Shown here piece after piece: positions 6,314-45,575 of a DNA stretch of 64,000 nt. Each line of letters begins with the position of its first letter. Positions within the stretch are counted from its first letter, which is position 1. The translations under genes were made by a program, and so were the position numbers. Under the pieces are notes generated by a model. The model made no database searches, had not been told where the DNA came from, and worked only from the letters and a program-made list of their open reading frames with translations. Origin of the DNA: Spirochaetota bacterium (lineage in GTDB: Bacteria > Spirochaetota > UBA4802 > UBA5550); assembly GCA_022709405.1 (NCBI GenBank), contig JAKLIV010000001.1, forward strand, positions 49,952 to 113,951, read 5' to 3'.

Positions 6314-6319
6314 ATCCGG

Positions 6320-9300
6320 ATGTCAAATACTGAAATTAAACAAAAGATACACGACAGCATTAAATCATTTGCTTCTGGTTCATTAACTGATAACGCGTTG
6401 AATATATTTTCAACCCTTGGCTATATAACCACTCGCCAGAACCCCTTTACGACGAAAACATATAAGTATTTCAAGGACACTTATATTGAAAACAATAACA
6501 AATTTAATGAAGACAAAGCTTTGTTTTCAGAGTGGAAATATATTGATTTACTTTTTCAACTTTCGGAAGAAGAAGTTTCATCTCAGACAAGCCTTTTCGA
6601 TACAAAACGCGTTGACCATACTGTTATTGAGACATACCTATTCTTTATTATAGAACTTTCGGAAAATAACTATTCCAGAACCACATTAAGCAATATCACA
6701 CGTGAAATGAATAAAGTTTTCCCAATGCCGGTCATGGTATTGTTCAAACATGGCGAATCTCTAACCCTTTCAATAATTAATAGAAGGCTCCACAAGAGGG
6801 ATGAACAGAAAGATGTTCTTGAAAAAGTCACACTCATTAAAGATATTTCCATAAGCAATCCTCACAGAGCACATGTAGAAATTCTCTTTGATTTATCTTT
6901 TGAAGAATTACTGACTAATCATGGTTTCACTAACTTTGTAGAGCTGCATAACGCATGGCAAAAGACTCTTAACCTATCAGAGTTAAATGAAAAGTTTTAT
7001 AAAGATTTACAAGACTGGTTCTATTTCGCTTCGCATAATATAAAATTGCCATTTAAGCCTGAATATATCGATTCTCAGGAAAATATCAAAAACTTCCTGG
7101 TAAGGTTACTTGGAAGAACTATGTTTTGCTGGTTTGTAAAAGAAAAAGGTCTAATACAACCAGAATTACTTGAATTGACTGACTGGAACAATATTCGATA
7201 TAATCTTACCGTTGACATTAATGATAAAAACTTTTTAAAAAGCAATAGTTATTATAGAGGTGTCCTGCAGAATATTTTCTTTAATGCTTTAAACAAGAGT
7301 GATAAAAAGAATAAAAAGGATTTTAAGTGGACCAAATATCTGCCCGCCGATTTTAATTATGACATTTTACTTTCAATACCCTATCTTAATGGTGGTATCT
7401 TTGATACTCTTGATGAAGATAATGCGAAAGAAAGTATTGAAGATAGTGTTATCAAAATACCTAATTACCTTTTTTATGGCATAACAGAAAAACAAAAAAT
7501 CACTACTGGCAAAGGGGAAAATAAGGAAGAACAAATTTCAACTGTAGTGCACAAGGGTCTTAATGAAATATTAAAGTCTTACAAGTTTACCCTTGAGGAA
7601 AACACTCCCCTTGAAGAGGACATTGCCCTTGACCCTGAACTTCTCGGCCTTGTTTTTGAAAATCTTTTGGCTGAATTGGACCCAAACCTTGAAGAAAGTA
7701 CAATATCAAGCATCCGAAGGCAAACTGGCAGCTATTATACTCCTCGAAAAGTAATTCAGGAAATGGTAAATGAGAGTCTCTATCTCTATCTTTCAAAGTA
7801 TATTGAAAAGAACCATCCCGGGTTAGCAGGTTATAAGAAAGATTTAGCTGATATTATTTACCATCAGGTATCTACCAATGAAAAAACCAGTGAATGTTGT
7901 GAGGCCGTTGTTTCGGCACTAGATAAGTTCAAGGTGTTAGACCCTGCATGTGGTTCTGGGGCATTCCCTATGGGTATGCTTCATCGTATGGTCGATATTC
8001 TGAAGGCAGTTGATCCTGATAACAAGATATGGCTTGGTTTAAAGTTAAAAGGCGTTGATTCAACGCAGCGGGTTGAATTTAAAAAAATTCTTACGCTCCA
8101 CCTAGATGACTATGGCCGCAAACTCGGCATCATTCGAGATAGCATTTATGGCATAGATATACAGCCCATGGCTGTTCAGATAACAAAACTCCGTTTTTTT
8201 ATAACACTTCTTATCGACCAGAACATTGAGAAAGGCATAACCCCTATGCCGAATATTGAGACAAAGATTATCTGCGCTGACAGTTTGAAAAACATTCAGG
8301 CCGGTTTGTTCAGTAGTGATGCTATTAATCAATTAAAAGAGGCCAGGAGGCGTTTTTATCAGCCAGACATCAGTTATCAAGAAAGAGAAAAAATCACAGA
8401 AGAAATTGTTGTTATTCTTGACCAGGCTTTTCCGGATTTTGCTGAGCAGATTACAGGTAAAAAAATTAAGGGTCAGAATAAGGAACTGATTCGCCACTGG
8501 TTTACCCACGCTACAATTGCTGCACCATTTTTCAATATGGATTTCTTTTATCCGGAGCTTGGAGGCAAGGGTTTTGACTGTGTCATAGGGAATCCACCTT
8601 ACGGTGGCAAAAAGATAAGCGATGAAATCCGTCAGGACCTTGATATTGAAAGCAAAGATCCTTACGGTGCATTCATTGCCCGCTTTATTAATGAACCCAA
8701 CAGTCCCACACCTTTGAAACACGGTGGTGTTCTCGCATACATTGTAAGTGATACTTTTATGACCATAAAAAGTCATTTAAAACTAAGAAAGCATATAATG
8801 CAGAATTATATACATAAAATGCTGCGAGTAAATCCAGATACGTTTAAAGCCACGGTCAATACCGCGATTATTATATTCGAACGAAATACAAACGACAGTA
8901 TAGACCCAAATCATATTTGCCAGATGGCGGATATGACAAATATTAGTATTCACGATAATTATGAGCATTTTGTGGATGTACTCCACCAGACAGAGGGTGT
9001 TGATTTCAGTGAAGCGGACATACGGAAGGCTGTGTCAAATGCCGAGTATGCTATTTATTATTATCCACAAAGTTTGATTAAGACTAACAGCAATTTACCG
9101 TTATTTGTGGCGAGCCCAAAGCTGTTTGCGTTGATGAATGATGGAAATGATCTAGAGAATAAGTCGGATAGTGAATGGAATGAATTGGGTGGGAAAAAGG
9201 TTCAGGTAAGAAGTATACCTATGAATGATTCGATAGTTAAGATAGTTAAGTTAGGAGATGTCGGTTCTGCACCACATGGCATTTCAACAGGCAACAATAA

Positions 9301-10108
9301 GAAGTATGTACGTGCTGTTGAAGGTACAAAAGGAAGTTATGATGCAATAGAAGATTGGATGATTTGCTCTGAGTCAGAAATTAATACTTTATCAGAGAAA
9401 GATAAAATTAACGGTCTAAATAAAGATTGGAAATTATTAAAGAGATGTTTTGTTCCCTTTGAGAAAGGAGGCGAATCAGATTCTGGTGATGGATGGATGC
9501 CAAACTACTATGTGCCAACTACTTACTATATTAACTGGGCTAAAGGTGCAATTAATGATATGAGAAAAAATCCAGGTTTTAGATGGTTCAACGTGCAATA
9601 CTTTTTCAGAAAAGGACTTACTTTTTCCATATCAGGTATTTATGCACCAACATTCAGATTAAACAGTGGAGGCGTTTTCGAAGCAAAGGGTTCAGGTTTA
9701 TTCTGTGATATTTATGATGATGAGACATTGTTGGGTTTTATCGCTTCAAAATTAGCAAAATTTATTTTTAAAAACTATATCAAACATTCTGTTGATACTA
9801 GTGGTGATGATATTGCTTCATTTGTTCTTCTAAGTAATAATAAACATAATAATATAAAATTAAAAGTTGCCAGTATAATCAAAAAACAAAAATCAGATCC
9901 CCGTTACGATTACGCCAGTAACGAACAAATCGAAATCGACAAACTCGTTTACGAAGCATACGGCCTTAACGCTGAAGACATCGAAGAAGTAGAAAACTGG
10001 TATGCCCGCAGATATCCAAAACTTTCATCAGCACAAAAAGCTAACTTAAGGGCTCTTGGCAAGAGTGATGATTATCTTGTGCTGTATGGGTTGAAAAAAG
10101 AAAAATGA
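6320..10108 (+). CDS. large gamma-class N6-adenine DNA methyltransferase (Eco57I/PglX-like architecture; no nuclease motif seen)
   Basis: Motif I 'VLDPACGSGAFPMG' precedes motif IV 'VIGNPPYGG'. C-terminal 'IDKLVYEAYGLNAEDIEEVENWY' tail is typical of type IIG/IIL-like methylases. Starts 6 nt after the helicase stop. Confidence 0.85.
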   Translation: MSNTEIKQKIHDSIKSFASGSLTDNALNIFSTLGYITTRQNPFTTKTYKYFKDTYIENNNKFNEDKALFSEWKYIDLLFQLSEEEVSSQTSLFDTKRVDHTVIETYLFFIIELSENNYSRTTLSNITREMNKVFPMPVMVLFKHGESLTLSIINRRLHKRDEQKDVLEKVTLIKDISISNPHRAHVEILFDLSFEELLTNHGFTNFVELHNAWQKTLNLSELNEKFYKDLQDWFYFASHNIKLPFKPEYIDSQENIKNFLVRLLGRTMFCWFVKEKGLIQPELLELTDWNNIRYNLTVDINDKNFLKSNSYYRGVLQNIFFNALNKSDKKNKKDFKWTKYLPADFNYDILLSIPYLNGGIFDTLDEDNAKESIEDSVIKIPNYLFYGITEKQKITTGKGENKEEQISTVVHKGLNEILKSYKFTLEENTPLEEDIALDPELLGLVFENLLAELDPNLEESTISSIRRQTGSYYTPRKVIQEMVNESLYLYLSKYIEKNHPGLAGYKKDLADIIYHQVSTNEKTSECCEAVVSALDKFKVLDPACGSGAFPMGMLHRMVDILKAVDPDNKIWLGLKLKGVDSTQRVEFKKILTLHLDDYGRKLGIIRDSIYGIDIQPMAVQITKLRFFITLLIDQNIEKGITPMPNIETKIICADSLKNIQAGLFSSDAINQLKEARRRFYQPDISYQEREKITEEIVVILDQAFPDFAEQITGKKIKGQNKELIRHWFTHATIAAPFFNMDFFYPELGGKGFDCVIGNPPYGGKKISDEIRQDLDIESKDPYGAFIARFINEPNSPTPLKHGGVLAYIVSDTFMTIKSHLKLRKHIMQNYIHKMLRVNPDTFKATVNTAIIIFERNTNDSIDPNHICQMADMTNISIHDNYEHFVDVLHQTEGVDFSEADIRKAVSNAEYAIYYYPQSLIKTNSNLPLFVASPKLFALMNDGNDLENKSDSEWNELGGKKVQVRSIPMNDSIVKIVKLGDVGSAPHGISTGNNKKYVRAVEGTKGSYDAIEDWMICSESEINTLSEKDKINGLNKDWKLLKRCFVPFEKGGESDSGDGWMPNYYVPTTYYINWAKGAINDMRKNPGFRWFNVQYFFRKGLTFSISGIYAPTFRLNSGGVFEAKGSGLFCDIYDDETLLGFIASKLAKFIFKNYIKHSVDTSGDDIASFVLLSNNKHNNIKLKVASIIKKQKSDPRYDYASNEQIEIDKLVYEAYGLNAEDIEEVENWYARRYPKLSSAQKANLRALGKSDDYLVLYGLKKEK

Positions 10109-10527
10109 ACTATTGGCTCGTAAAATTTGCACCTTTCCGGTATAGTTGGAATGATGTTCTGAAAAACGGAAAATTTGAAATTTATTCAGTCCGCAGTCCG
10201 CAGGCACGGAACAATCTGAAAGCTATGAAACTAAATGATTTGGTACTGTTCTACCATAGCCAGCAGGAAAATTGTGTAATGGGTATTATGAAAGTAATTA
10301 AGGAAGCGCACCAGGACCCGACTACTGATGATACTCGGTGGGTTTCAGTAACTTTTGAACCTGTTGAAACCTTGAAAAAGCCGCTCTTTTTGAAAGAAAT
10401 ACGATTAGTCTCGGAACTAACCGGTCTACCATTATTAAAACAGCCACGTCTTGCTGTTATGAAGCTTACTGAGAGTGAATTCAATATAATTACACGCTGG
10501 TGGGAGTATCGACGAGAAAAATATTAA
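10105..10527 (+). CDS. EVE (PUA-like) domain protein, predicted modified-base reader
   Basis: 'MNYWLVKFAP...YSWNDV...LVLFYHSQQENCVMGIMKV' matches the canonical EVE N-terminus and core. The ATG overlaps the methylase TGA (ATGA), implying translational coupling. Confidence 0.8.
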   Translation: MNYWLVKFAPFRYSWNDVLKNGKFEIYSVRSPQARNNLKAMKLNDLVLFYHSQQENCVMGIMKVIKEAHQDPTTDDTRWVSVTFEPVETLKKPLFLKEIRLVSELTGLPLLKQPRLAVMKLTESEFNIITRWWEYRREKY

Positions 10528-10789
10528 ATATATTCTCCGCACGTCCTGTTCTTCGGCAGTTCAAGTAGGGGAGAGCAAAGAGGTCGCTTTCGGATAATCT
10601 TATTGTAAGAGTTGACGCTATATTTATAAAACGGCGTTTATACTAAATTCCTTTTACTCGATTGGTATCCTGCACATTTTTACCATCGATAGGCTATTAG
10701 GAAGGAGTGCTTAAGATTATTGCGAAGCTGGTGTAGGTGCTAGGTATTTCAGACTCAAAATCAAGCATTAATGAGGGTGAAATAATAGA

Positions 10790-11773
10790 ATGAATCTATT
10801 CTTGATTGGTTCGGGCTTTACTAAATCTGTTTTCCCTCAAGCGCCTTTAAATAATGACCTTATTAGTGTTCTATTGAGAGAAAATCCAGGTGGCGCATCT
10901 AGAATACTTACTGAAAAATATAATACCGGAGATATTGAAGTTGCCCTTACAAAACTGGAACTTGATATTTCAGTCACCAGTGATGAATCAGAAAGAGGTA
11001 AGTTAACCGAATTGAGAGCAAATATAATATTGGAACTGGTAAAACATTTTCATGCATACAGGGCGAGTGAAGAGCTGATAGGAGGTTTACCTTGGTTAAG
11101 GGACTTCTTCGGCACCGTTGTAAATATTGGCGATACGGTTATCAGCTTAAACTACGATGCGTTATTTGAAGGACTACTGGATTGTATGGGTAAATGGACT
11201 CCGAATGGAGGTTATGGAAACCACTTTGTATATCCATTTGAAGATGAGGAATCTTGTGCCCAAAGCCCGGTTACGGTATTAAAAATCCATGGTTCAATCA
11301 CCTTTAAATCGGCGCCTTATTTTGATAAACCACAGTGCAAATCTGTAAATTTTATTTTTAATGAACACTATTTTCCCAAAACAGCGAAAGACAAACATTT
11401 TGGTTATGGTCTGGATAATGGTGAAATATACTTGATAGCCCCGAGTTATGTAAAAGTTCCTTCCGTAAAAATAACATACTCAATGATCGATGGAATGCAA
11501 GCATCTTCGGATGCAACAAACCTGATGGTTATTGGATGTGGGCTTCGACCTGAGGATACCTTTCTAACTTTGTTATTAACCAATTTTCTTAAACACCCAG
11601 ACTGGAAAGAGCGAAGGATTATTATCGTAGATCCTAAAGCTAATGAGATAGCAGGCAAGATACGCCACTATTGGGGGGTCGATGTTGATCGATGTATTGT
11701 GCCAATTCAAGGAATATTGGAAAAGAAGATCGGAGAATTGCGTCAATATACTCGTGCATCTTTGACTGCCTAG
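10790..11773 (+). CDS. SIR2-like (SIR2_2 family) protein, candidate NAD+-consuming effector
   Basis: 'FLIGSGFTKS' N-terminal glycine loop, 'ISLNYDALFE' (TTNYD-like), 'LKIHGSI' (KLHGS-like), and 'VIGCGLRPED' (GYSxxD-like). Confidence 0.7.
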   Translation: MNLFLIGSGFTKSVFPQAPLNNDLISVLLRENPGGASRILTEKYNTGDIEVALTKLELDISVTSDESERGKLTELRANIILELVKHFHAYRASEELIGGLPWLRDFFGTVVNIGDTVISLNYDALFEGLLDCMGKWTPNGGYGNHFVYPFEDEESCAQSPVTVLKIHGSITFKSAPYFDKPQCKSVNFIFNEHYFPKTAKDKHFGYGLDNGEIYLIAPSYVKVPSVKITYSMIDGMQASSDATNLMVIGCGLRPEDTFLTLLLTNFLKHPDWKERRIIIVDPKANEIAGKIRHYWGVDVDRCIVPIQGILEKKIGELRQYTRASLTA

Positions 11774-11804
11774 TGTGTGTCTTTTTAGTGTATTGGAGGT
11801 AATT

Positions 11805-12815
11805 ATGTTTCTCTCATCAAAAGATAAGATAAGAGAAAAGGAATTTTCTATTATCTTTGAACCTGAACACAGAAGTAAGGTATGGAAGATCATTGAAGAA
11901 AAATTCCATGAATATTTCAATATGATCATTAAAGACGCTTGTCAATCACCCGTCTCGGAGATAGACAGATTGAAGAAAAAATTCTCAAATGTTAGTCCTT
12001 CTGTCAACATCGGTCAATATCTTGATGTTGAAATGTCTTCGGAAATTGAGAATTTTGAGAAGACCCAAAAAACCTACAAGAATTTATTTTCCAAAGCTAA
12101 TATCGAAGAATATGCATCGGATACAAAGCTTTTTAGATCGGATCTGAAGAATGAATGCCCCGTTATACGTGGCCTCTGGAACAGCAAAGATGAGGAATTG
12201 AAGAAGTGGAAGGAAGCGTATAAGTATTCCAATGATGACGAACTCTATGAAGTAATGGCAAATATTGTGAATTTCTCACATGCCTATGCCAAGTCTATGA
12301 AGAAAAAACAGTATGGGGAAAATGACGATTATGCGAAATTAAATTTCGACTGTTTAGATGGTATTAAGGACGATACTGAACCGGACTATGGTCTTGTCGG
12401 TGTTGTTGGTTACGGTATCATGTCTATTATAATGTATCACTTTTACCCGCAGTATTTCCCCTTACACCTGAGCGGTGGGATATATGCTCTATATTTCCTT
12501 TCTGATAAATATGAAATTGGAATGCCGAGCAAGTCATCGGAATTTCTCATGATTGACGACAGTCATTGGGATGGAGATATGCATTTCAAGATGAAACACA
12601 ACTATTTTTATCCCTATAGGCTCTACACATGGTATGCCCTGCGATTGTATCGCCTGCTAAAAACCGAGTGCGCAAAACATAATTTTACTCTCGATGATGC
12701 TTACCGTTATGTGTATCTCAATTCGTTTTGTTGGGATGTATGCAGGAGACATACTGAAGAAATAAGGACCATGGTGGGTGCTGATGAAGACCCGAACAAG
12801 CGCTTCTGGTATTGA
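11805..12815 (+). CDS. hypothetical protein (orphan, ~336 aa)
   Basis: ORF track starts at a GTG at 11775. The ATG at 11805 is preceded by GGAGG plus a 6-nt spacer. No recognised motif. The 3' end overlaps the next gene. Confidence 0.55.
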
Positions 12816-14427
12816 TGATATACTGAAAAGGTATTTTAGCGACATTGCCGGTTGCGGATTGCGTGATCTACAGGAAGCAGCGATACGACGCCTTCTCGAA
12901 GGTGGAAATACCCTCTGCCTCATGCCCACGGGCGGGGGTAAATCGCTCATTTACCAGGTCGCCGGTCTCTGCATTGGTAAAACGACACTGGTAATATCGC
13001 CGCTTATAGCTCTCATGTCCCAGCAGAATGAGCGCCTTATCGATCGAGGCGTCAAAACCTTGTATTTTCCCGGAGGAATAGGTGGAAAAGAGCTCTATGC
13101 CATGCTAAAGAAGCATGGAGAGGGCGATCCACCTGATTTCATTTTCATATCACCGGAGCGGCTCGAATTCGAGGGTTATTTTGAATTTATACTTAATAGA
13201 ATGCGGAATAGAATTGGCCTGGTTGTCGTTGACGAGGCCCATTGTATATCCCAATGGGGGCATACCTTCCGTCCTTCTTATAAGATGATTCCTCGTTTCC
13301 TTGATGATGTGTTTACCCAAGAGTCATGGCCTACAGTCCTGTGTCTTACAGCGACATTGAACAAGAAAGACCAGGGTGAGATTTCTGCTGACTTTCACAT
13401 CCCCGCAGATGGGATAATGAAAAGCCCTTTTCTCCTTCGCGACAACATTGCAATAACCGTGGCGAGAGATTTCAAGAATGAAGAGGACAAGAAATCCTAT
13501 CTTGAAACCTTGCTTTCCAAGCACAAAGCTGATAAAACAATAGTCTATGTTCATCGTAAAAAGGGTCAGTACGGAACGGAGTCCATGGCTGAGGAATTTT
13601 ACAATAAAGGTTTCAAATGTCTCTATTTCGATGCGGATCTATCAGAAAACCAGAAGGTGGAGGCGCTTGAGCGCTTTGAAAGGGGCGATGTTAAAGTTAT
13701 GTTCGCCACCGGTGCGTTCGGCATGGGTATCGATATCGATGATATCCGGGTTGTCATCCATTATCTTCTGCCGGAATCGATAGAACAATTTTACCAGGAA
13801 ATAGGCCGGTCCGGAAGAGACGGCAAGCCTTCATATTCATATCTCCTTTTCACTGAAACGAATATCAAGGTAAGGCGTGACTTGATACGAACAAGCATGC
13901 CAACGACTCAAGAATTGGCTGAAACTTTTACGAAGAGATTTATTCACGCCAGAGAAAGTAAAATCGATACCATCAACGCTTGGGAAGACCTGGCGGATAA
14001 TGAAAAGATATCCTTTCTGTATTTTCGGAAGTATGGTTTAATTGATGTTGTCGCGAAAGGGATACGCTCGATTAAAGGTTTCAAACCAGTCAAGCCTCTA
14101 AAAGAATTTGATGCATTCATGAAAACTTCAAAAATTGGTTCTGTCCTTAATATAGCTTCAAGAACACGAATTGATGTAAAAGGAATTATAAATAAGATAT
14201 ATGAATTGTTTACAATGGGTGATCTAAAACTTGAGAAGGCACCCAGCAAGTGTGTATTTTTAATAAAAAACAAAGAGTTATCCGATGAAATTCAACAAGA
14301 AATAATACGTGATATTGATGAGAAAGTTGCCTATCGTTTACAAGGGTTTGAGAAATTGGTTGTAATGGTGTTGGGGGGAGAGGATCCAACAGATGCGATA
14401 TGCACTCATCTCGGAATTGAAAAGTAA
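12784..14427 (+). CDS. RecQ-family SF2 DNA helicase (short form; no obvious HRDC)
   Basis: '[13 protein letters not shown]' (motif I), '[19 protein letters not shown]' (DEAH plus RecQ signature), 'LTAT' (motif III), '[20 protein letters not shown]', '[11 protein letters not shown]' (motif VI). The ATG at 12784 overlaps the upstream gene by 32 nt. Confidence 0.85.
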
Positions 14428-14508
14428 TAGATTGTGGATATTTTCATGAGACATGAAATATATAAAATCTTTATTAAAAAATTGAATATTTATTTTTAAG
14501 GAGCTCAT

Positions 14509-17500
14509 ATGACATTACCAGTAAAACACCTATCCGCTCGTGTTCCCTGGCATGACAATAGATGGAACGGGACTTACTGTTGTAATGTTCTGGATAACTC
14601 ATTTTGCCGAATTCTACCCAGAATCGATGATGGTAAAAATCCGGAAAAGGAGCCAGACGGCGAAAATATTACTGAAGATAATTTTCCACCCTGTATCGCA
14701 GAAAAGGGAACTTTCCTTTCTCCTTGTGAATACACCCGGCCTCTGGAACATGCCTGGAAAGATATCAACCCGCTTTATAAAGAATATTTACCTGGTAAGT
14801 ATCTTCATAAACCTTATTCTTTTAATGCAGTCCCTTTTTTGTGGATGATGAAAGCCAATTCAAAAGAGGGTCATACATCAGATAAAGCGGAAATCTACGG
14901 ATTGGATTACCAGGCGGAATTAGAAGAGGAAATTGACAAGAAACTTGGTTTTGAAGGCAATACCTGGGTTCAGCATCCGCAAAATCAAAGAGTTTTATTG
15001 GATTCATTTTTTGGATGTCTGAAGGAGTATGAATCATTGATTTTCTTTTACGCAAAGCACACTCCACTTTCAGAACCAAATGAACGCATTATTATTGGAG
15101 TTGCAAAAGTCCGTAAAATTGGTGATATTCAGTATTATGATTTCCCCAAAGGTTATCAAGGTTACAAAAGCTATCCATGGGACCGATGTGTTGAACATAC
15201 ACTAACTAAAAATAATCAGGATGGATTTCTTCTACCTTATCATGAACTGATTGAAAAATCCAAAACAGCTGAATTTGATCTGCGAGAATATGCCGTTATT
15301 GCACCGGATTTTGTGCAGTATTCCTATGCTTCCGAATTGGTGGAGCATGATACCGCTATTGATTCACTCTGGCGAATGGCGGAGTCTCTTCGGAAGTCTG
15401 AAACGACTCTGGGGACTTCATACAAAAAAGAGTTGGAATGGATAGATAACGAAATAAGCCGTATTTGGGATATGCGCGGTGCTTTCCCCGGTATGGGCCC
15501 AGTACTTAGCGCAATAAAAATCACAGAAGGGAATACCATCGCTTGGGAAATTGAAAAACATATCAGAATTAAAGATGAAGACCTTCTTAAGACCAACCCT
15601 TGGGAAGTGCTACAAGAAAGCATTTCTAAACCGGAAAAAATGTTTGGTGAAAGGGGAAAGAAACTTTTTAATGCAACTATGGTTCGTATTTGGAAAAGCG
15701 TACCCAATGATAAGAAAATGTTTTATCAATTGCTCAGCAGAATACAACTCAGTAATGAACAAGCAGAAATAATCATTGATGAGCATGCAGATTTAATCGG
15801 ATTGATGGATGACATTATAAAAAATCCCTATCTTATTTATGAGAAGTTGCGCATTTTATATAAGGGTTTAATCACTTTTAATCAAATTGACAAAGCCGTT
15901 TTTCCACCGTTAAAAATTCGTGAGGCTTTCCCACTTGATCCGGCAAGCAAGATGTCAGACTTTCTTGATGAGCGTAGAGTTAGAGCCTTCGCGGTTATGG
16001 TTCTTGAAGAGGCGGCAGATGATGGGCATTCCATTTTACCGTTTCAAGATGTTTTGAACAGGATAAGCCTGAAAGAATCAGCAGAGGATTTCCCTATCAA
16101 TGAAGATATCCTTCAATCGCAAGCAGAAGAAGCATTTTTTCAAGTGGAGATTGAACTGTTAAAACATCAATCATTGACCTTTCTGAAGTTGCAACGATTG
16201 TTAGAGATCAAACGGTTAATTACTCAGCGTATCAATAAACAATTAAATCAAAAAAAGACATACAATATAAATTATAATTGGGATGAGATTGTCACGAATT
16301 ATTTCAAGAAACATCAAAAGGGGACTGCACCGGTAGCTATAGACGAATTTGAAATTCTTGCCAGAAAAGAAAAGGCGGAATCATTAAAAATTCTCTGCAA
16401 TTACAGGGTGTCCGTACTGATAGGGCCTGCTGGCTCAGGCAAAACAACCTTGCTTGAAATGTTTGAAGAGATCCCAGAAATTATTAAAGGCGGTTTGATT
16501 AAACTTGCTCCTACCGGTAAAGCAAGGGTAAAAATGGGGCACAATGCAAAGACCGTTGCGCAATATCTCTATCCAACCAATAGATATGACGGTTATTATG
16601 GGGTATATCTTACTAACGAAGATGGCGCAAAAGATTCTTCTGCACGAAACATAATTATTGATGAATCCTCTATGCTAACAGAAGAACAGCTGGGAGCGAT
16701 TTTGGATGCACTTGGACCTATGGACAGGATAATTCTGGTGGGAGATTACAGGCAGTTGCCTCCAATAGGAACAGGACGTCCTTTTGTAGACATTGTAAAT
16801 CTCCTTAAACCTGAAGTTTTTGAAAATCCACAAATAAGAATCGGGCATGGTTATGCTGAACTGAGACAGATTCGCCGTCAGAAAAAAGAAATAGGTATTG
16901 AACGAAAGGATATTGTCTTGAGCAGATGTTTTGGCGATGAACCGCAGAAAGAAGAGATTGAATTATTTCAGGAAATTGCCGGAAGCCTGGAAAAGAATAA
17001 TCATATTCGGCTTGAAAAATGGTATGACAGCAAAGATTTCAGGAAGAAATTTGAAAATATAATTCAGGAAGAACTTAACCTAGACCCGGCGGATGTTATT
17101 AAAACTTTTAATAGGACATTGGGTGCGAAAGACATTGGAGATTATCAGTATTTTAACTATGACTATTCCGAAAATGAAATTGAAAACTGGCAGATAATAT
17201 CTCCAGTAAATGGCTATGGTTACGGTGTAAAAGAAATTAATAAATTCATTCAGAGTACATATAGAAAATCTTTTATTGACCTTGCACATAATATCACACA
17301 CCAGAAAAGGAGAATTGCCAAGCCTAAAGGTGCTGACAATATGGTCTATGGCGATAAGGTTATAAGTTTAAAAAATAATACATGGCGTGATCATCAGTGG
17401 ATAAGACCTCAATCAAAAAAATCCGAAGCCCTAAACTATTTTGCCAATGGTGAAATTGGGGTCATAACCGGCGAGTTCAGAGGGCAAAAATCAAATGGAA

Positions 17501-18270
17501 AAGGTGAACCAAAAATAGAAATTACTTTTTCAACACAACCAGGATACAGTTATTCTTTCTGGCCAAATGAACTCGGAGAAGATGGTAAATATCCCTTTGA
17601 ACTCGCTTATGCCATAACAGTTCATAAATCACAGGGTAGTGGTTTTAATAAGGTTTTCTTTGTACTCCCTTCTCAGGGAGCCATTCTTTCTAGAGAACTA
17701 TTATATACTGCATTGACAAGGCAGGAGGAGAAGATCATTATTCTACACCAAGGTGATTTTAGAGATTTTATAAGATTTGCAGGCACTGAAGCGTCGGCTA
17801 CTGCTAAGCGGTTTACCGATTTATTCTTCCTACCGGAAATTAAGCAGATTGAGAAAAAATGTTATGATGCTCGTTATATCAATGTATCGGAACGGGGAGA
17901 GCGGATGATCTCAAAAAGTGAGGTGATTATTGCAAATTGTCTGAATAAATATAAAAACGAGATCAGGTATGCATATGAAAACAAGTTAACGCTGGAATCG
18001 ACAGGTAGGACTATCAAGCCTGACTTTACGATAGAGCATCTTGGAACTGGAAAAGTATTTTACTGGGAACATCTGGGTATGATGACCCGCGAGGACTACC
18101 GAGAAAAATGGGAAAAGAAAAAACAAGGCTACCTGGATGATGGTTTTGTTTTTTTTACCGAACAAAAGGATGATGCGGACAAGGTGTTGATTATTACCGA
18201 GGAAAATCCTAATGGCGGAATTGACTCGCAGCACTTTGATGAAATTATTTGTAAATATATTTTAACATAG
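14509..18270 (+). CDS. 1253-aa protein: uncharacterised ~600-aa N-terminal region + RecD-like SF1 helicase + C-terminal PD-(D/E)XK-like nuclease
   Basis: 'LIGPAGSGKTTLL' (Walker A), 'IIIDESSML' (Walker B), 'ILVGDYRQLPPIG', 'AITVHKSQGS', 'LYTALTRQEEKIIIL'. C-terminus 'KPDFTIEH...VFYWEHLGMM' is nuclease-like. RBS AAGGAG lies before the ATG. Confidence 0.8.
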   Translation: MTLPVKHLSARVPWHDNRWNGTYCCNVLDNSFCRILPRIDDGKNPEKEPDGENITEDNFPPCIAEKGTFLSPCEYTRPLEHAWKDINPLYKEYLPGKYLHKPYSFNAVPFLWMMKANSKEGHTSDKAEIYGLDYQAELEEEIDKKLGFEGNTWVQHPQNQRVLLDSFFGCLKEYESLIFFYAKHTPLSEPNERIIIGVAKVRKIGDIQYYDFPKGYQGYKSYPWDRCVEHTLTKNNQDGFLLPYHELIEKSKTAEFDLREYAVIAPDFVQYSYASELVEHDTAIDSLWRMAESLRKSETTLGTSYKKELEWIDNEISRIWDMRGAFPGMGPVLSAIKITEGNTIAWEIEKHIRIKDEDLLKTNPWEVLQESISKPEKMFGERGKKLFNATMVRIWKSVPNDKKMFYQLLSRIQLSNEQAEIIIDEHADLIGLMDDIIKNPYLIYEKLRILYKGLITFNQIDKAVFPPLKIREAFPLDPASKMSDFLDERRVRAFAVMVLEEAADDGHSILPFQDVLNRISLKESAEDFPINEDILQSQAEEAFFQVEIELLKHQSLTFLKLQRLLEIKRLITQRINKQLNQKKTYNINYNWDEIVTNYFKKHQKGTAPVAIDEFEILARKEKAESLKILCNYRVSVLIGPAGSGKTTLLEMFEEIPEIIKGGLIKLAPTGKARVKMGHNAKTVAQYLYPTNRYDGYYGVYLTNEDGAKDSSARNIIIDESSMLTEEQLGAILDALGPMDRIILVGDYRQLPPIGTGRPFVDIVNLLKPEVFENPQIRIGHGYAELRQIRRQKKEIGIERKDIVLSRCFGDEPQKEEIELFQEIAGSLEKNNHIRLEKWYDSKDFRKKFENIIQEELNLDPADVIKTFNRTLGAKDIGDYQYFNYDYSENEIENWQIISPVNGYGYGVKEINKFIQSTYRKSFIDLAHNITHQKRRIAKPKGADNMVYGDKVISLKNNTWRDHQWIRPQSKKSEALNYFANGEIGVITGEFRGQKSNGKGEPKIEITFSTQPGYSYSFWPNELGEDGKYPFELAYAITVHKSQGSGFNKVFFVLPSQGAILSRELLYTALTRQEEKIIILHQGDFRDFIRFAGTEASATAKRFTDLFFLPEIKQIEKKCYDARYINVSERGERMISKSEVIIANCLNKYKNEIRYAYENKLTLESTGRTIKPDFTIEHLGTGKVFYWEHLGMMTREDYREKWEKKKQGYLDDGFVFFTEQKDDADKVLIITEENPNGGIDSQHFDEIICKYILT

Positions 18271-18394
18271 CATAAAACAGATATTCATATTTCCTGTGCT
18301 AGGCGGTAAATATAAGGTTGGCAATGGGTTGGCCAGTTTGTTCGGAGTGCAGGAATTAAAGTAAATCCGGCCAGTGAGGAGAGTTAATACCCCC

Positions 18395-20311
18395 ATGTCC
18401 CACCTCTATCCCCCATCCCTCGACCATCTCGACTCCCGCTTCGACGCGGAAAAGGAAGTCTTTGACCTCATGAAGGCCCTCGACGACTCGTACCACGTGT
18501 TCCACTCCGCTACCTGGAAGGATAACCGCGACGGCGAGTGTGACCTCATCATCTTCCACGAGCTCAAGGGCTTTATCGCGCTCGAGGTCAAGGGCGGGGG
18601 GATAAAGCATGACGGACAGCAGTGGACATCGTCCGGCAATAAAGGCGTATTTATCATCCATAACCCGATAAAGCAGGCACGGGACGCCATGTACGCGATC
18701 AAGCGCACTTGGGAAGAAAAATACAAAACGCCACTGCCGGGAACGTTCTCCTGGGCAGTATGCTTCCCCGACTGTGTGTGGGACAATTCCAGCCGAACAC
18801 TTGACCTTGATGAAAAGGACGTGCTCGATGCGAAAAAGATGGGTTCTGCCACTGCATGGATCGATGCGCGGTTCGCCGAAATGCACAATCGTCATGGAGC
18901 GAAAATCCTCTCCACCAACGAGTCAAAACAGTTCATCCAGCTTTTCAGCAAGACAATGTCGCTGACCCTGTCGCTCAACAGGGCCATCGTGCGCCAGGAG
19001 GAGGAGCTTCGAATCACTGACCGAATGCAGGACTACCTGCTCGACATCTTTGACGACAAGCACCGCATCGGGTTCCAGGGAGCGGCCGGCACGGGCAAGA
19101 CCTGGATCGCGATGAAGAAGGCGCGACGGCTTTCTGCCGAAGGCAAATCGATACTTTTCCTGAGTTACAATAGGCAGGTGAATGACTTCGTCGCCGGCAA
19201 GCTTAATGATACTAAACCGGTGACTGTGAAAACATTCCATGCGTTCGCCCAGGGAATCATCCGTGAATACCTCAAGGGGCACCTGGTTGACCAGGCATGC
19301 GTGAACTGCTTTTTTTCCTGTCTTGACGATATTAGCCGGCAGTTGAAACAGATCAAGGCGGGCGGGGATAATGATCCAGGTGAACCCAGGGGCAAAGAGC
19401 TGACGATTGACAATAAACTCAACAATGCCCTTCATTTTTTAAGCACCATCCCGGCAGGGACGCAATGCTCATCCATTCTTGAAGAGCACGGGCCCGGCAT
19501 GCCTGCCGCGGTGCGAATGGTAATGAAACATTTGCTCCCCGAAATCAAGGTGTCTGGAGGATACTACGAGGAGCGCATGCCGATGGCACTGATGTCAATC
19601 TTCATTGAAGAGCCGTCGTTCTGCGAGCGTAACCATTTCGACGCGCTCATAATAGACGAAGCCCAGGATTTTCATAAGGACTGGTGCGACTGCCTGCAGT
19701 CCCTGTTCCTCAAATACGAAGACCGCACCTGCTACATTTTTTACGATGACAACCAGACCATCTTTACGAACGATAAGGAACTTCCGGTTGTGGGCCTTAT
19801 CGGTTCTGCCGGTCTCGAGGACCACATATTTCGTCTAAAAGACAATCTCAGGAACACAGCCGCGATCCATGATTACGCGGTCAGCACAACCGGCAAGGGA
19901 GGCACGTCCCGTCCGTTTGAGATACCGGGCATAACGCCGATAGAGAAGACCGTGAAAAGCGATTCTGCGGCCCGTTCCGCTGTCGGCAATATTCTGGATG
20001 AGCTCATTGTGACGCACGGCATATCTCGAGACCGCATCGTGGTGCTGTCGAACCGAAGCATGGACAATTCGGTGTTTTCCGGCACACCCGCAGCAGGGGA
20101 GTATACCATGACCGAAAGCGCCGGTTTGCGTGGCAAGGGAGTGCGGTTCCGCACCATCCAGAAGTTCAAGGGCCTCGAGTCTGATGTGGTCATACTGATC
20201 GTCCACCGTCGCGCGCAGGACAGCGACGCGCGCTACCTGGCCGATGAGCTCTTATACGTGGGCTGCACCAGGGCGAAGCATGTATTGTACGTGGTGAATG
20301 TGGAGGGGTAG
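18395..20311 (+). CDS. NERD-domain nuclease fused to UvrD/Rep-like SF1 helicase
   Basis: NERD-like 'CDLIIFHELKGFIALEVKGG'. Helicase motifs 'FQGAAGTGKTW', 'LIIDEAQDF', 'KFKGLESDVVIL', 'LYVGCTRAKHVLYV'. ORF track starts at a GTG at 18374; the ATG at 18395 follows GAGGAGAG. Much GC-richer than both neighbours. Confidence 0.8.
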   Translation: MSHLYPPSLDHLDSRFDAEKEVFDLMKALDDSYHVFHSATWKDNRDGECDLIIFHELKGFIALEVKGGGIKHDGQQWTSSGNKGVFIIHNPIKQARDAMYAIKRTWEEKYKTPLPGTFSWAVCFPDCVWDNSSRTLDLDEKDVLDAKKMGSATAWIDARFAEMHNRHGAKILSTNESKQFIQLFSKTMSLTLSLNRAIVRQEEELRITDRMQDYLLDIFDDKHRIGFQGAAGTGKTWIAMKKARRLSAEGKSILFLSYNRQVNDFVAGKLNDTKPVTVKTFHAFAQGIIREYLKGHLVDQACVNCFFSCLDDISRQLKQIKAGGDNDPGEPRGKELTIDNKLNNALHFLSTIPAGTQCSSILEEHGPGMPAAVRMVMKHLLPEIKVSGGYYEERMPMALMSIFIEEPSFCERNHFDALIIDEAQDFHKDWCDCLQSLFLKYEDRTCYIFYDDNQTIFTNDKELPVVGLIGSAGLEDHIFRLKDNLRNTAAIHDYAVSTTGKGGTSRPFEIPGITPIEKTVKSDSAARSAVGNILDELIVTHGISRDRIVVLSNRSMDNSVFSGTPAAGEYTMTESAGLRGKGVRFRTIQKFKGLESDVVILIVHRRAQDSDARYLADELLYVGCTRAKHVLYVVNVEG

Positions 20312-20456
20312 GCTGCAACAATATGTATTTAATTATGTGGTTACTATTAAATCGTCAGATCGAGGAAATTTTAATTCTCTAAATCTGCAAAAGATATTTA
20401 CATTACCTCAAAGAAGGTGACCTCTGCATTACAGATGAGCCCTGAGCTGTTGCGAA

Positions 20457-21377
20457 TCACATAGTTTTATCTATCAGCCAATCAACCAATCCATATTTTA
20501 CTACATTTTTTGCAATTTCTGAAATAGACCATATCTCAACATCTTTATCCTGTAGTAATGATGAATCACTGAGGTCATCGCTAATAGTATGAACGATATA
20601 ATATAATCTCCGGAAATTTTCATTATCAAATTTGTCTACATATTCGATAAATTGATCTTTTGAGCTGGATGATTTAATTTGAACCTGATATAAATCTTCG
20701 GTAATAGGGTCAATTAATTCAAGATCAACAAATTTCATGGATTCTCCTAAAACAGATATTCGCTGCCAACCTGTCTCACGAAACATAAGGTCAATTAAGA
20801 GCTCAAAATCTTTCCAATGTAAATTTTTAATTATGGCCTCAATTGTTTTTTCAAGATTTATCTTTGCTGTATTAAGTAATATTGCATCTTCACTTATTTG
20901 GTGATTTAACAATCTGTGTAAAGTATTGAAATCATGTATCTTGCATAATGTACCTGAAAATCTTTGAGTTTTAGTGATATTTCCAGATATTCTATTTATA
21001 TAAAGCAAATTACCATCGATATCCTTACTACTCCATGAACCTTTAACTCTCCTGAACTTTGATATTTTATCTTCTTCAATATCAACTTCAGATGAAGGAA
21101 TACACCAGTATAACATCGAATTTTCAAAAGTTATGAATACTGTTTTTTCATCAGCAGTAATAATTCTTTTTAATGCATTAAAATCTCTGGTTGCCGAACC
21201 ATCATCCTTTGAGGTTAACCTGTTTATTTTATATATTTCATCCCAATCATTATTCTTAATTAAATTAATTGGAATATTTGACCAGCCAATACGAATTAAA
21301 TTATTTTCTAGACTGTTTGAAGCCCATTTGCTATGTGAACCGAGTTTAATATAATATGCTTTCTTAAAATCAATCAT
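20457..21377 (-). CDS. Mrr-like (PD-(D/E)XK) restriction endonuclease with uncharacterised N-terminal domain
   Basis: The C-terminal half 'HWKDFELLIDLMFRETGW...FVDLELIDP...YQVQIKSS' resembles the Mrr_cat D..ExK core. RBS GAGGTG upstream. Confidence 0.6.
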   Translation of the reverse strand: MIDFKKAYYIKLGSHSKWASNSLENNLIRIGWSNIPINLIKNNDWDEIYKINRLTSKDDGSATRDFNALKRIITADEKTVFITFENSMLYWCIPSSEVDIEEDKISKFRRVKGSWSSKDIDGNLLYINRISGNITKTQRFSGTLCKIHDFNTLHRLLNHQISEDAILLNTAKINLEKTIEAIIKNLHWKDFELLIDLMFRETGWQRISVLGESMKFVDLELIDPITEDLYQVQIKSSSSKDQFIEYVDKFDNENFRRLYYIVHTISDDLSDSSLLQDKDVEIWSISEIAKNVVKYGLVDWLIDKTM

Positions 21378-21409
21378 TTAATACACCTCAATTATTGATA
21401 AAAAAATTT

Positions 21410-21421
21410 GAACGAGCTATA
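21410..21421. repeat. left arm of a 12-bp perfect inverted repeat (GAACGAGCTATA) flanking the 62-aa ORF
   Basis: GAACGAGCTATA at 21410..21421. Its reverse complement TATAGCTCGTTC is at 21653..21664. Similarity extends into the adjacent A/T run. Confidence 0.7.
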
Positions 21422-21436
21422 TAAAATGAGACTTTA

Positions 21437-21625
21437 CTACCCTTTAAACCATGAAGGCGGTTTTGATGATGATGTTGGTGAATATACCCAGGTAACTTTA
21501 CATCCCGGATAACGTTTTTGTACAAGTTCTTTTACTTTACTTTGAGATGAACCATTAATTTCTTCATATTGATTATCCGAACTGGAACCACTATCGACTC
21601 GATAACAACAATAATAATTTGACAT
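21437..21625 (-). CDS. small hypothetical protein (62 aa)
   Basis: ATG preceded by AGGAGA plus 5 nt. Lies between the DUF2779 gene and the Mrr-like gene on the same strand. No motif recognised. Confidence 0.45.
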   Translation of the reverse strand: MSNYYCCYRVDSGSSSDNQYEEINGSSQSKVKELVQKRYPGCKVTWVYSPTSSSKPPSWFKG

Positions 21626-21667: not shown

Positions 21668-23656
21668 TTATTTTCCATTACACTCGTTAACCCAATGTTC
21701 ATAAATCATCACCATGGCAAACGTATCAAGCTCGCAATAACGGAGCAGAGCGGCGACGATCTGTTTTCTCTCAACTTCACTCATCTCACTGAACTGCATT
21801 CTGGCATAGGCCATCATGGCTGCACCGCCGTCGGCGATATTCTTGTCGGTCACAAAGCGTTCAAGGAGCTCATCGTCAATGCCGTCAAATACGGGCGGAA
21901 GGGTCTTGTAGGGATCCTTGACCTGGCTACCATTAAACTCGATCCAGACTTTATCGCGATAATTGAGGCTTGGAATACCGTCTGCTGAACCGTAGATCGG
22001 ACAAGAATACTTCTGCTTGAGGTAATCGCTCTCGTTGAGGACCGCGGGAAGCACCTTCTTGATGGAATTCGAACCGCCCATATTGGGACTATAGTAAAAA
22101 TCAAGTACCAGCTGGCGCATGTCAATCATGGTGCGGGGAGAGTCCCACACGATCTTGCTAGCGTTTTTTTTCGTCGTAATTGATTCTATGAATGCCATGA
22201 GCTCATCGCGGTCAGGGACCTGATCGGCTGTCTCGGCCTCGAGCTGGTCGTGTATCTGGTTGAGCACGGTGTTTTCATGGGCGGCATAGCGAAATATCGT
22301 GCCATTGTCGTTTTCAAGCTCTTTCTTGAGATGACGGAGAAAGTCATAGTTGGGAAACATGCCCTGGCTGCGGTTGATGTACTCACCAGCGTGAGCGATC
22401 GTACCATCTTCTTGAACGGTATGGTGGGAAAACTGAAACGCGATAACCTCGTAGGGCCTGCGGCCGCTGTTGAAGGGGATGGCGACCATGGAGGTTTCAA
22501 AATCAATAAAGTGCAGGGGATATTTCCATGATTTCATGGCACGTTCAAGACCACCTCTGTCGAGGTAGGGAGACGGGTCTTTTTTCTGGATCTTCTCGAC
22601 CTGGAGCCACTGGCGCTCTGATGAAGACAGGCCGGGGCCATCTGAGGATGTAATATTCATGTCATTTTCAGTAACGTCGGATATAAACAGCTTCTCATTT
22701 TCAAGCAGATCATCTTTGCGGCGAAAATTCCAGATATCAAGTATCATCGGTTTGTTAAAGTCAGCATCATCGAGACCGAAAGCTTCTTTCCAGCATTCCT
22801 TGAATCCTGAAAGAAATCCCTTGGCCTCATCATCACTGGTCGCGTTAAATTCACAATCCTTGCAGAAAGCGCCTGGTTTGGTAACTATCTTTTCGTCACG
22901 GGCATACATGTCGGAAAATAAACGGACCCTTTCAATAAAGGACATATCGGGAGGTTTGTTCGTGTCAGAGCCTTCATAGATCATTTCAGCCGCGTGGTCT
23001 GCCGATACCTTCACCAGTATTGTATCGCCCAGGCTGTCTGGATCGCAGGGGCCGTTCAGTTTTACACCGGTCCTGCCTCTTTTGTCCTTGACCAGCATGA
23101 ACCGCTGGTTGAGGCCGTCGACGCTCGCGCATGAGTTCTTGCTTGCAAGCATGAGGAAAGAACGTACGTGAAAATCAGGACGCGCATGGGTCAGAACATA
23201 CTTCTGAAAGGCAACATCATACAGGTACGGGGACCAGGCGCTTGCTATGTACCCCTTTGAACCAAGAAAATCAGCGTCTTTTTCAGCGTCGTATGACTTT
23301 GCCTTGACCTCGATGAGATCAACGCTGTTGCCGTCCTTGACGATGACATCGGCTCGAACGAAAAGGTTCTCGAACCGGAACGCGGCCTCATAAATGATGA
23401 CTTTATCACGCTCAAGCAGTTTATTCGTCTGCTCAAGAGACTTTTCGAAATCAAGCTCATCGATATTGACGCCGCCCGGATGGTAGAGCTTGGCGAGCTC
23501 GCCCACCTGGAAACCTCCCTCGGCAAGGGCCTCAAGAAAGGGGTCATCTATTTTATTATCCTTATACTCCTTTTTTTTACCGGTGTAATACAGCTTTGCC
23601 GGGCACTCGCACGCGAGCTTGAAACGGGATTTGGTCAGGTAGCGGGGCAGGGACAT
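21668..23656 (-). CDS. DUF2779-type protein (Cas4-like PD-(D/E)XK + DEDD-like exonuclease), second paralogue
   Basis: 'LTKSRFKLACECPAKLYY' start, 'ADVIVKDGNSVDLIEVKAKS' (D..ExK), 'HFIDFETSMVAIPF' (DxE), 'YCELDTFAMVMIY' near the C-terminus. Same motif order as 531..2216. Confidence 0.75.
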   Translation of the reverse strand: MSLPRYLTKSRFKLACECPAKLYYTGKKKEYKDNKIDDPFLEALAEGGFQVGELAKLYHPGGVNIDELDFEKSLEQTNKLLERDKVIIYEAAFRFENLFVRADVIVKDGNSVDLIEVKAKSYDAEKDADFLGSKGYIASAWSPYLYDVAFQKYVLTHARPDFHVRSFLMLASKNSCASVDGLNQRFMLVKDKRGRTGVKLNGPCDPDSLGDTILVKVSADHAAEMIYEGSDTNKPPDMSFIERVRLFSDMYARDEKIVTKPGAFCKDCEFNATSDDEAKGFLSGFKECWKEAFGLDDADFNKPMILDIWNFRRKDDLLENEKLFISDVTENDMNITSSDGPGLSSSERQWLQVEKIQKKDPSPYLDRGGLERAMKSWKYPLHFIDFETSMVAIPFNSGRRPYEVIAFQFSHHTVQEDGTIAHAGEYINRSQGMFPNYDFLRHLKKELENDNGTIFRYAAHENTVLNQIHDQLEAETADQVPDRDELMAFIESITTKKNASKIVWDSPRTMIDMRQLVLDFYYSPNMGGSNSIKKVLPAVLNESDYLKQKYSCPIYGSADGIPSLNYRDKVWIEFNGSQVKDPYKTLPPVFDGIDDELLERFVTDKNIADGGAAMMAYARMQFSEMSEVERKQIVAALLRYCELDTFAMVMIYEHWVNECNGK

Positions 23657-24568: not shown

Positions 24569-24638
24569 ATATCAACATGTTGCATAGAAATGTCATATAA
24601 CTTAAATGGTATCATGGGTATTGAGGATAAAAATTTAA

Positions 24639-24666
24639 TTGACAATGACGATTTTTGCAGTATAAT
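24639..24666 (+). promoter_or_regulatory. near-consensus sigma70-type promoter (TTGACA-16 nt-TATAAT)
   Basis: TTGACA at 24639..24644, 16-nt spacer, TATAAT at 24661..24666. It lies inside the ORF-track N-terminus of the WYL gene, 35 nt upstream of an in-frame ATG at 24701. Confidence 0.5.
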
Positions 24667-24700
24667 ACTGCGAAAACCCCGCCAATACAAGGACATACTC

Positions 24701-25636: not shown

Positions 25637-25668
25637 CCAGCATCAATCATTAAATAAAAGGTGATTTA

Positions 25669-40482: not shown

Positions 40483-40584
40483 GCAAAAGATCGATATCAT
40501 ACATATCGATTTGATCAGTGATATTGTTATACAAGCAAAATTTTATAATAAAAGAGTTTAAAAACAATTACCGGGGGTAAACCG

Positions 40585-45379: not shown

Positions 45380-45475
45380 CTTAACCTCCAAGCGAAAAGT
45401 GTGCTCACATGTTGCTCACACTTTACACTTTATATAGAGTTTTTTAAGATGCGCCGGTGGTCCGGTAGCCTCTTA

Positions 45476-45502: not shown

Positions 45503-45575
45503 TGGGCGCTGACGGGATCGAACCGCCGACCCTCTGCTTGTAAGGCAGATGCTCTCCCAGCTGAGCTAAGCGCCC
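45503..45575 (-). tRNA. tRNA-Val: tRNA-Val (anticodon TAC)
   Basis: The reverse complement GGGCGCTTAGCTCAGCTGGGAGAGCATCTGCCTTACAAGCAGAGGGTCGGCGGTTCGATCCCGTCAGCGCCCA folds as a cloverleaf by hand: 7-bp acceptor stem, GCTC/GAGC D-stem, TCTGC/GCAGA anticodon stem with loop CTTACAA, GGCGG/CCGTC T-stem with TTCGATC loop. No encoded CCA. Confidence 0.9.

Follow-up and report, generated by a model that had tools for sequence, protein, structure and literature searches.

Positions 10790-18270 of a 64,000-nt stretch of Spirochaetota DNA (assembly GCA_022709405.1, contig JAKLIV010000001.1; hereafter the window, part of a 141-kb metagenome contig from the Joint Genome Institute, JGI) hold four same-strand genes that encode a SIR2-like protein, an orphan protein, a RecQ-like helicase and a large helicase-nuclease. 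The conserved functional unit among them, as judged from sequence comparisons, is apparently the orphan together with the RecQ-like helicase, a two-gene family that appears to be undescribed. With a probability of roughly 0.45, this pair represents a scattered immune family with a RecQ-type sensor, an all-alpha adaptor of new fold and interchangeable suicide effectors, of which the window would carry a split-gene SIR2 version. The effector would then occur as a nuclease fused to the helicase, as a TIR, caspase, SIR2 or EAD11 domain fused to the adaptor, or as an upstream gene for a NERD-helicase or a SIR2 protein. SIR2, adaptor and RecQ-like helicase would together form an effector-swapped variant of this undescribed helicase-based defence family, with the fourth gene, PDC-S68, as an independent neighbour. 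The original prediction had assigned all four genes to a single defence system of new composition. The genes in question are the following.

10790-11773, + strand: SIR2-like gene, 327 aa
11805-12815, + strand: orphan gene, 336 aa, counted from the ATG behind a GGAGG ribosome-binding site
12784-14427, + strand: RecQ-like helicase gene, 547 aa
14509-18270, + strand: PDC-S68 gene, 1253 aa
18374-20311, + strand: NERD and UvrD-like helicase gene, 645 aa

The first four genes are real. All are long, intact open reading frames (ORFs) with full-length homologues, and their products are 100% identical on four contigs, each from a different sample; one further contig, from yet another sample, stops inside the fourth gene. 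Their arrangement is as first described, with 31 nt between the SIR2-like and orphan genes, an overlap of 32 nt between the orphan and RecQ-like genes, and 81 nt between the latter and PDC-S68. The 31-nt spacer contains nothing but the GGAGG ribosome-binding site, and a terminator that was looked for in it was not found. The 81-nt gap has a GC content of 20% and includes promoter-like hexamers. Promoter-like sites (33, compared to 25.1 ± 4.8 in shuffled sequence) and terminator-like sites (8, compared to 6.4 ± 2.3) both occur at numbers close to the shuffled counts. The GC content at third codon positions (GC3) is 0.31 in the SIR2-like gene, 0.42 and 0.425 in the orphan and RecQ-like genes, and 0.335 in PDC-S68. 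These genes end a low-GC block (2978-18270, GC3 0.30-0.43) that is located between host-like genes with a GC3 of about 0.69, and the region is best explained as a stack of separate defence modules inside this block. A megablast search of 10600-18350 against E. coli genomes and a plasmid collection returned nothing similar, and an Rfam scan of 9500-21500 gave no match.

Orphan and RecQ-like helicase as a conserved pair

Outside the window, the orphan was found at 97 loci from about 40 lineages (at 70% identity), and in 92 of them the contig runs on for 300 nt or more behind the orphan gene. A RecQ-like gene follows in 91 of these 92 loci and usually overlaps the orphan stop codon. No third gene family recurs near the pair in more than four lineages, and none of the 97 loci contains a relative of the window SIR2-like gene (BLAST) or a full S68 gene. 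Typical neighbours are type I and type IIG restriction-modification (RM) genes, PDC-S02, toxin-antitoxin genes, recombinases and prophage ends. An example from an isolate is found on plasmid3 of Aulosira laxa NIES-50, where the two genes are annotated as 'hypothetical protein' and 'RecQ' (products BAZ78642 and BAZ78643). The pair is not described in PADLOC v2, Pfam, NCBIfam, PHROGs or the literature searched, which covered phage defence by RecQ combined with SIR2 or TIR as well as a conflict-system paper of the Aravind group.

Some copies of the pair are decayed. The one locus without a following helicase (L051) retains the orphan only, and L092 and P0055 have lost the helicase core, which leaves the nuclease tail joined to the orphan or to a RecQ stub. 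These copies show that the module turns over. Further proteins accompany the pair in single groups of loci. In one Clostridiales lineage, a protein of 507-521 aa without family match is encoded behind the RecQ-nuclease (L008, 6491-8014; also L022, L025-L028 and L035), its longest ORF overlapping the end of the helicase gene, and in L006-L009 and L021 an anonymous 323-344-aa protein precedes the orphan. Both may be lineage-specific accessories.

The orphan protein matches no family in Pfam, NCBIfam, PHROG or PADLOC; for PADLOC v2, where none of the models matched, this is in line with its description as an orphan. A sequence-profile search of the PDB likewise gave no match. Its AlphaFold2 model is all-alpha (pLDDT 87.9, pTM 0.88) and has no significant Foldseek match in PDB or BFVD. 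The queuine-salvage family DUF2419 was considered as a relative and dismissed as noise (Foldseek E 7-9, probability 0.05). The orphan family comprises 55 clusters in a word-indexed search and 274 representative clusters at E <= 1e-3 among 1.84 billion proteins; the closest relatives of the window protein are P0002 (53% identity) and P0003. A tblastn search with one orphan against a phage collection found no match. We interpret the orphan as an adaptor or regulator of the RecQ-like helicase.

The RecQ-like protein consists of DEAD and Helicase_C domains and passes the NCBIfam recQ_fam cut-off (249.5 compared to 219.8 bits). The complete signature that had been read from the sequence is confirmed: Walker A (K53), the DEAH residues D150, E151 and H153, and the arginine motif are invariant. 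The resemblance to RecQ is confined to the helicase core, as the equivalog model TIGR01389 reaches 295.7 bits compared to a cut-off of 640.2 and is covered at profile positions 3-348 of 591 only. The protein is predicted to be the sensor or motor of the pair.

In its usual form the helicase is longer, about 660 aa, and carries a C-terminal nuclease domain, which is present in 66 of the 70 orphan loci with the helicase C-terminus on the contig and shares 37-57% identity with its C-terminal counterpart in PDC-S68. In the alignment, the window protein stops with 'HLGIEK*' exactly at the domain boundary, and the long forms run on past it ('...YLGVEKHMLNRIY...SKSEVIIA...PDFT...WEHLGM'). The window helicase is thus a short, nuclease-less variant form, like those of L015, L101 and the viral contig L141. 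A short form at 42-49% identity is common to L014, L015 and L101, the last with a similar C-terminal tail, which argues for an old, maintained architecture and not for a recent pseudogene. An extension in the other direction is seen in L013, where an 893-aa RecQ-nuclease (8891-11572) carries one more domain at its C-terminus, related to the C-terminal domain of the PADLOC RT-Toprim/RT-TIR retron-type proteins (E 5e-32); this pair is located inside a type I RM operon and adjoins a PDC-S02 Mrr-type gene.

In 18 of the best 150 matches to the orphan profile, 170-530 additional residues precede the orphan part, and Pfam was searched with 10 of the 18 proteins. By profile comparison, this fused subfamily and the orphan are homologous (hhalign probability 100%, E 9e-49). 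The extensions are distributed as follows.

TIR_2/SEFIR fused to the orphan: 4 of 10 (P0353, P0372, P0377, P0398)
Peptidase_C14 (caspase) fused to the orphan: 3 of 10 (P0374, P0386, P0413)
EAD11 fused to the orphan: 1 of 10 (P0392)
SIR2_2 fused to the orphan: 1 of 10 (P0394), with canonical TTNYD and HLHG motifs
N-terminal extension without significant Pfam match: 1 of 10 (P0362)

If such domains replace the nuclease, a fusion on the adaptor should be paired with a nuclease-less helicase. This was checked once, and it held: on viral contig L141, a 477-aa TIR-orphan fusion is overlapped by the gene of a 557-aa RecQ-like helicase that lacks the nuclease domain and is 35% identical to the core of the window protein. 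In L014, L015 and L101, a gene for a helicase with NERD and UvrD-like domains overlaps the start of the orphan instead, and the three genes share their GC3. The nuclease domain is gone in all three loci (L015, L101 and L141) in which the N-terminal side of the orphan is occupied and the RecQ C-terminus is on the contig. These arrangements are best explained by a putative effector slot on the N-terminal side of the orphan, which would be filled by a fused effector or by an upstream NERD-nuclease helicase. A group of orphan homologues of about 485 aa (P0362, which is the member searched against Pfam above, P0367, P0379, P0383, P0387 and P0393) shares an N-terminal domain of about 190 aa fused to the adaptor, with the motif 'LFISCPSD...EE...GTPTG..SGTEEEI'; judged by eye, this domain resembles TIR-like or DUF4062-type domains.

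Adjoining genes and their surroundings in the window

The SIR2-like protein consists of the catalytic domain only. Its AlphaFold2 model (pLDDT 92.4) matches best the SIR2 subunit of SIR2-HerA in Foldseek (8sub, 8wld, 8w9l; E 4.5e-8, TM 0.55-0.64), followed by matches to Sir2Af, FAM118B, DSR2 and ThsA. The motifs reported from the sequence are present as the glycine loop FLIGSGFT, SLNYD and KIHGS. G7, G9, N121 and H167 are invariant across 31 family members, and with N121 and H167 the catalytic residues named beforehand are kept within a SIR2 fold. By sequence profile, the relation to SIR2 is weak (Pfam SIR2_2 20.1 bits at a cut-off of 24.5; Aga_SIR2 E 2.7e-5). The family includes about 92 clusters. 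Relatives are encoded between AbiD and a McrB-like GTPase in two of the four other loci examined (L097-L100) and within integrase-bearing islands in the other two; a tblastn search of the window protein against plasmids gave no match. The protein is predicted to be an NAD+-consuming effector and is a candidate for the effector of the adaptor-RecQ pair in this lineage.

The 1253-aa protein had been described as a RecD-like motor joined to a C-terminal nuclease module and an N-terminus of no known family, and all three parts are found. Residues ~487-1079 match AAA_30/AAA_19/UvrD_C_2 and RecD2-like models of superfamily 1B (SF1B) helicases, the C-terminal restriction-endonuclease-like domain carries E1138, D1172, E1187 and H1188, and the N-terminal ~480-600 residues are conserved across the family without any Pfam or NCBIfam match. 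This gene has a counterpart in a defence catalogue, as residues 1-1250 match profile positions 1-1218 of 1221 of PADLOC PDLC05065, i.e. PDC-S68 (E = 0, 1330.9 bits). The S68 family comprises more than 839 clusters, full-length homologues are known from Bacteroidota, Bacillota, Chloroflexota, Acidobacteriota and archaea, and architecture and length are kept in more than 100 homologues. Since a single-protein query found no relative in the genome scan, an alignment query was used, which yielded 35 loci (29 from reference genomes and 6 from viral contigs); in 33 of these, the contig also includes flanking sequence. No relative of the orphan, the RecQ-like or the SIR2-like protein was detected within 8 kb in these loci by BLAST or profile search, and no neighbour family is common to more than 5 of the 33 flanked loci. 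On a Bacillus cereus plasmid, S68 is located alone between an integrase and DISARM. S68 is thus most likely an independent single-gene module, and the window gene a candidate for a stand-alone helicase-nuclease, known as a computational defence candidate, that adjoins the pair by chance.

The 645-aa protein downstream matches Pfam NERD and UvrD_C_2 and has RTasNERD-Hel as its best PADLOC model, which is also the best model for the helicase whose gene immediately precedes the orphan in L014 and L015. The copy in L101 is cut by the contig end and matches the L015 protein by tblastn. The window protein is collinear with, and 25-30% identical to, the L015 protein. Its gene has a GC3 of 0.69, like the host-like flank, compared to 0.42 in the pair. 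A NERD-UvrD gene near the pair is restricted to the short-RecQ clade. In sample ERZ795054 (L002), the sequence diverges wholly from locus position 17210 (about window position 19014) onward; this break falls within the NERD-UvrD gene and leaves the NERD part alone. Either the strains differ here, at the right edge of the block, or the assembly is broken.

A tightly packed module of three genes (2978-10527) is located directly upstream of the SIR2-like gene. It encodes a PLD(HKD) and Snf2 helicase protein of 1111 aa (PADLOC C3a139 'HKD+Snf2', E 4e-131), an Eco57I/type IIG-like methyltransferase of 1262 aa and an EVE-domain protein of 140 aa that overlaps the methylase stop codon by 4 nt; the module looks like a restriction-modification-like or modified-base-reading system. 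The low-GC block is bracketed by an 11-nt direct repeat, AGGTTGGCAAT, at 2849-2859 and 18315-18325. With about 0.05 matches expected by chance, the repeat is suggestive of a single insertion event. DUF2779 proteins flank the defence block on both sides (531-2216, + strand; 21668-23656, - strand), and one of the two has a weak Cas4-like PADLOC match. Further downstream (24590-26838), the gene of a WYL-WCX regulator precedes one of very low GC content (0.30), whose product weakly matches an 8-oxoguanine-glycosylase-like helix-hairpin-helix model (PADLOC OGG, 1.6e-7) and may be another defence candidate.

A tyrosine integrase gene (44195-45391, - strand) adjoins tRNA-Val (45503-45575, - strand), and an exact 16-nt copy of the 3' end of this tRNA is found at 33000-33015 within an ORF for an SPFH-domain protein (32220-33209). 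This suggests a putative integrase element of about 12.5 kb between ~33.0 and 45.5 kb, which would carry a leucine-rich repeat protein, a MoxR-like AAA_5 ATPase and two proteins of more than 1100 aa without Pfam match (36928-43959). An element of this integrase that contains the four-gene region was considered and dropped, because the tRNA copy at 33000 places the element downstream of the region.

Relation to known systems and alternative explanations

The cassette is not Thoeris, DSR, SIR2-HerA, SPARSA, Hachiman, PsyrTA or Dpd, and the lack of a TIR partner, HerA, prokaryotic Argonaute or giant DSR architecture remarked on in the original prediction is borne out. For SIR2-HerA (Nezha), the SIR2 subunit is the best structural match and its Asn and His are kept in the window protein, but among the genes scanned from 32 to 26838 none was identified as HerA by Pfam or PADLOC, nor do the precomputed Pfam labels of the four loci with SIR2 relatives include it; the neighbours of the SIR2-like gene are instead EVE, orphan, RecQ and S68. 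Unlike Thoeris, the SIR2-like protein has no SLOG or other sensor domain, no TIR gene is present in the region and no Thoeris model matched. Proteins of the DSR1/DSR2 type have about 1000 aa or more compared to 327 aa here, and DSR2 is a distant fold match (rank 22, E 1.3e-4). Short Argonaute-SIR2 systems (SPARSA) are characterised by an adjacent short Argonaute (MID-PIWI) and an APAZ domain; here, there is the weak Aga_SIR2 match, and none of the scanned neighbours matched an Argonaute.

On the helicase side, the pair resembles Hachiman in its two genes, with a small protein upstream of a superfamily 2 (SF2) helicase, an effector of restriction-endonuclease fold, an occurrence in defence islands and a helicase thought to sense DNA states. 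It differs in that none of the four proteins matches HamA, HamB or DUF1837 in PADLOC or Pfam, that the nuclease is on the helicase and not on the small protein, that the helicase is of RecQ type, and that the orphan is all-alpha without nuclease motifs or known fold. PsyrTA (RqlHI) also combines a RecQ-like helicase with a small partner, and the PsyrT model reaches 241 bits on the core; it covers profile positions 11-370 of 689 only, as also in the long forms of the family, the orphan matches no PsyrA (none of the PADLOC families at E <= 0.01), and the partner gene is located upstream here and overlaps the helicase gene. DpdF models are the best PADLOC matches to the RecQ-like core (301 bits), but they are covered at positions 22-358 of 610 only, the NCBIfam DpdF score is 203 bits compared to a cut-off of 550, and no neighbour is best matched by a Dpd model, weak DpdE helicase-core matches being limited to the PLD-Snf2 protein. 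From a housekeeping RecQ the protein is set apart by the lack of an equivalog match that includes the RQC and HRDC regions. For PDC-S68, the window gene agrees with the known family in full length and stand-alone occurrence, and no difference was seen.

Lamassu systems combine LmuA, which has swappable N-terminal effectors (SIR2, nuclease, protease), with the SMC protein LmuB. Together with Avs/NLR-type systems, they share with the pair a conserved sensor or motor and a scaffold with interchangeable N-terminal effectors. The motor here, in contrast, is a RecQ-like SF2 helicase and not an SMC protein or STAND ATPase, and there is neither a sequence or fold relationship to Lamassu nor a PADLOC Lamassu match. 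By analogy, the pair would work most like Hachiman and PsyrTA, as a small partner with an SF2 helicase, with effector swapping of the Lamassu/Avs kind.

From the observed gene linkage, domain architectures, fusions and SIR2 fold, we infer a defence function, what is sensed, activation through the adaptor, and SIR2 as the partner in the window. The effector of the usual form would be the restriction-endonuclease-like domain at the C-terminus of the helicase, and the orphan would be translationally coupled to the helicase. As in other helicase-based systems, the RecQ-like motor may engage intermediates of phage DNA replication or recombination, and the adaptor would relay the signal, probably by an altered assembly state. 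TIR, SIR2 and caspase effectors are generally activated by assembly, so that the adaptor probably controls the oligomeric state. In the window, the SIR2 enzyme would then deplete nicotinamide adenine dinucleotide (NAD+) and abort the infection. Given the 31-nt spacer without terminator, the SIR2-adaptor fusion elsewhere and the missing nuclease domain, SIR2, orphan and RecQ form the most economical unit.

Several observations weigh against this assignment. The adjacency of the SIR2-like gene to the orphan is found in one lineage only, on five contigs that are identical across these genes. The orphan and RecQ are absent from all four other loci of the SIR2 family; in L097, the SIR2 gene has a GC3 of 0.35 compared to 0.54 and 0.67 in its neighbours, and in these four loci the gene looks like a mobile single-gene cassette. 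The GC3 of 0.31 compared to 0.42 in the pair suggests different histories in the window as well. In P0394, the SIR2 domain ahead of the orphan part is of a different subfamily and lacks BLAST similarity to the window protein, the gene neighbourhood of an adaptor fusion is known from one locus, L141, and the literature searched contains no published test of PDC-S68. We hold it doubtful, all the same, that the SIR2 cassette, the orphan with its short RecQ, and PDC-S68 are three independent modules whose spacing reflects island packing. The orphan and short RecQ would then have lost a NERD-helicase partner, and would work without SIR2 or be decaying. Such independence agrees with the SIR2 loci just mentioned, with the stepwise GC3 (0.31, 0.42, 0.335) across SIR2, pair and S68, with the NERD-UvrD gene, and not SIR2, upstream of the other short-RecQ members with visible neighbours, and with the decayed copies L051, L092 and P0055. 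It is countered by a spacer between SIR2 and orphan that is too short for a separate promoter, by the intactness of all three ORFs, and by the nuclease-less pair having no recognisable effector without SIR2. SIR2 is, moreover, among the few domain types fused to the adaptor, which makes a chance neighbour of that type unlikely.

An improbable alternative is that the pair uses a helicase-nuclease in trans, either PDC-S68 or the NERD-UvrD protein, so that the unit extends to 18270 or 20311. The S68 domain is related to that on the long RecQ forms at the 37-57% identity given above, and each short-RecQ locus with context has a same-strand RTasNERD-Hel-type helicase within 4 kb, which no long-RecQ lineage has. 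S68, however, never accompanies the orphan or RecQ in the 35 other loci and is preceded in the window by an AT-rich gap with promoter-like sites, and the window NERD-UvrD gene differs from its counterparts in GC3 relative to the pair, in position and order, and by its 25-30% identity. It is more improbable still that the pair is a DNA-processing module of mobile elements, serving replication restart, recombination or element maintenance and not immunity. RecQ helicases are classically repair enzymes, and copies of the pair are carried by plasmids and prophage-like contigs or adjoin recombinases; TIR, caspase, SIR2 and EAD11 as fusion partners are nevertheless hallmarks of conflict systems and not of repair, the neighbours are mostly restriction and toxin systems, and the family is sparsely and unevenly distributed (274 clusters among 1.84 billion).

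Least probable of all, and by our estimate very much so, is a single integrated system of all four genes as originally proposed. These share a strand, short gaps and the lack of a clear terminator within 10790-18270, and all four are identical on four contigs from different samples. Yet they co-occur nowhere beyond this lineage, be it in orphan, SIR2 or S68 loci, and S68 is a widespread stand-alone candidate. The four-gene reading is therefore not supported as stated. Of the proposed coupling of a SIR2 effector to two helicases, the link between SIR2 and the RecQ-like helicase is kept in a reduced, three-gene form, which is plausible, and S68 as a part of it is given up.

The region illustrates that genes packed like an operon on one strand of a defence island can belong to several independent modules, which matters when such cassettes are cloned. 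If the preferred reading of the orphan-RecQ pair as an immune family is true, it would add a new class of helicase-based sensors to bacterial immunity, as well as a new adaptor fold tied to the TIR, caspase, SIR2 and death-like adaptor repertoire of NLR-type and other conflict systems. The series of architectures, with the nuclease on the helicase, the effector on the adaptor or a separate effector gene, would offer an experimental handle on how a helicase acting on foreign DNA activates its effectors.

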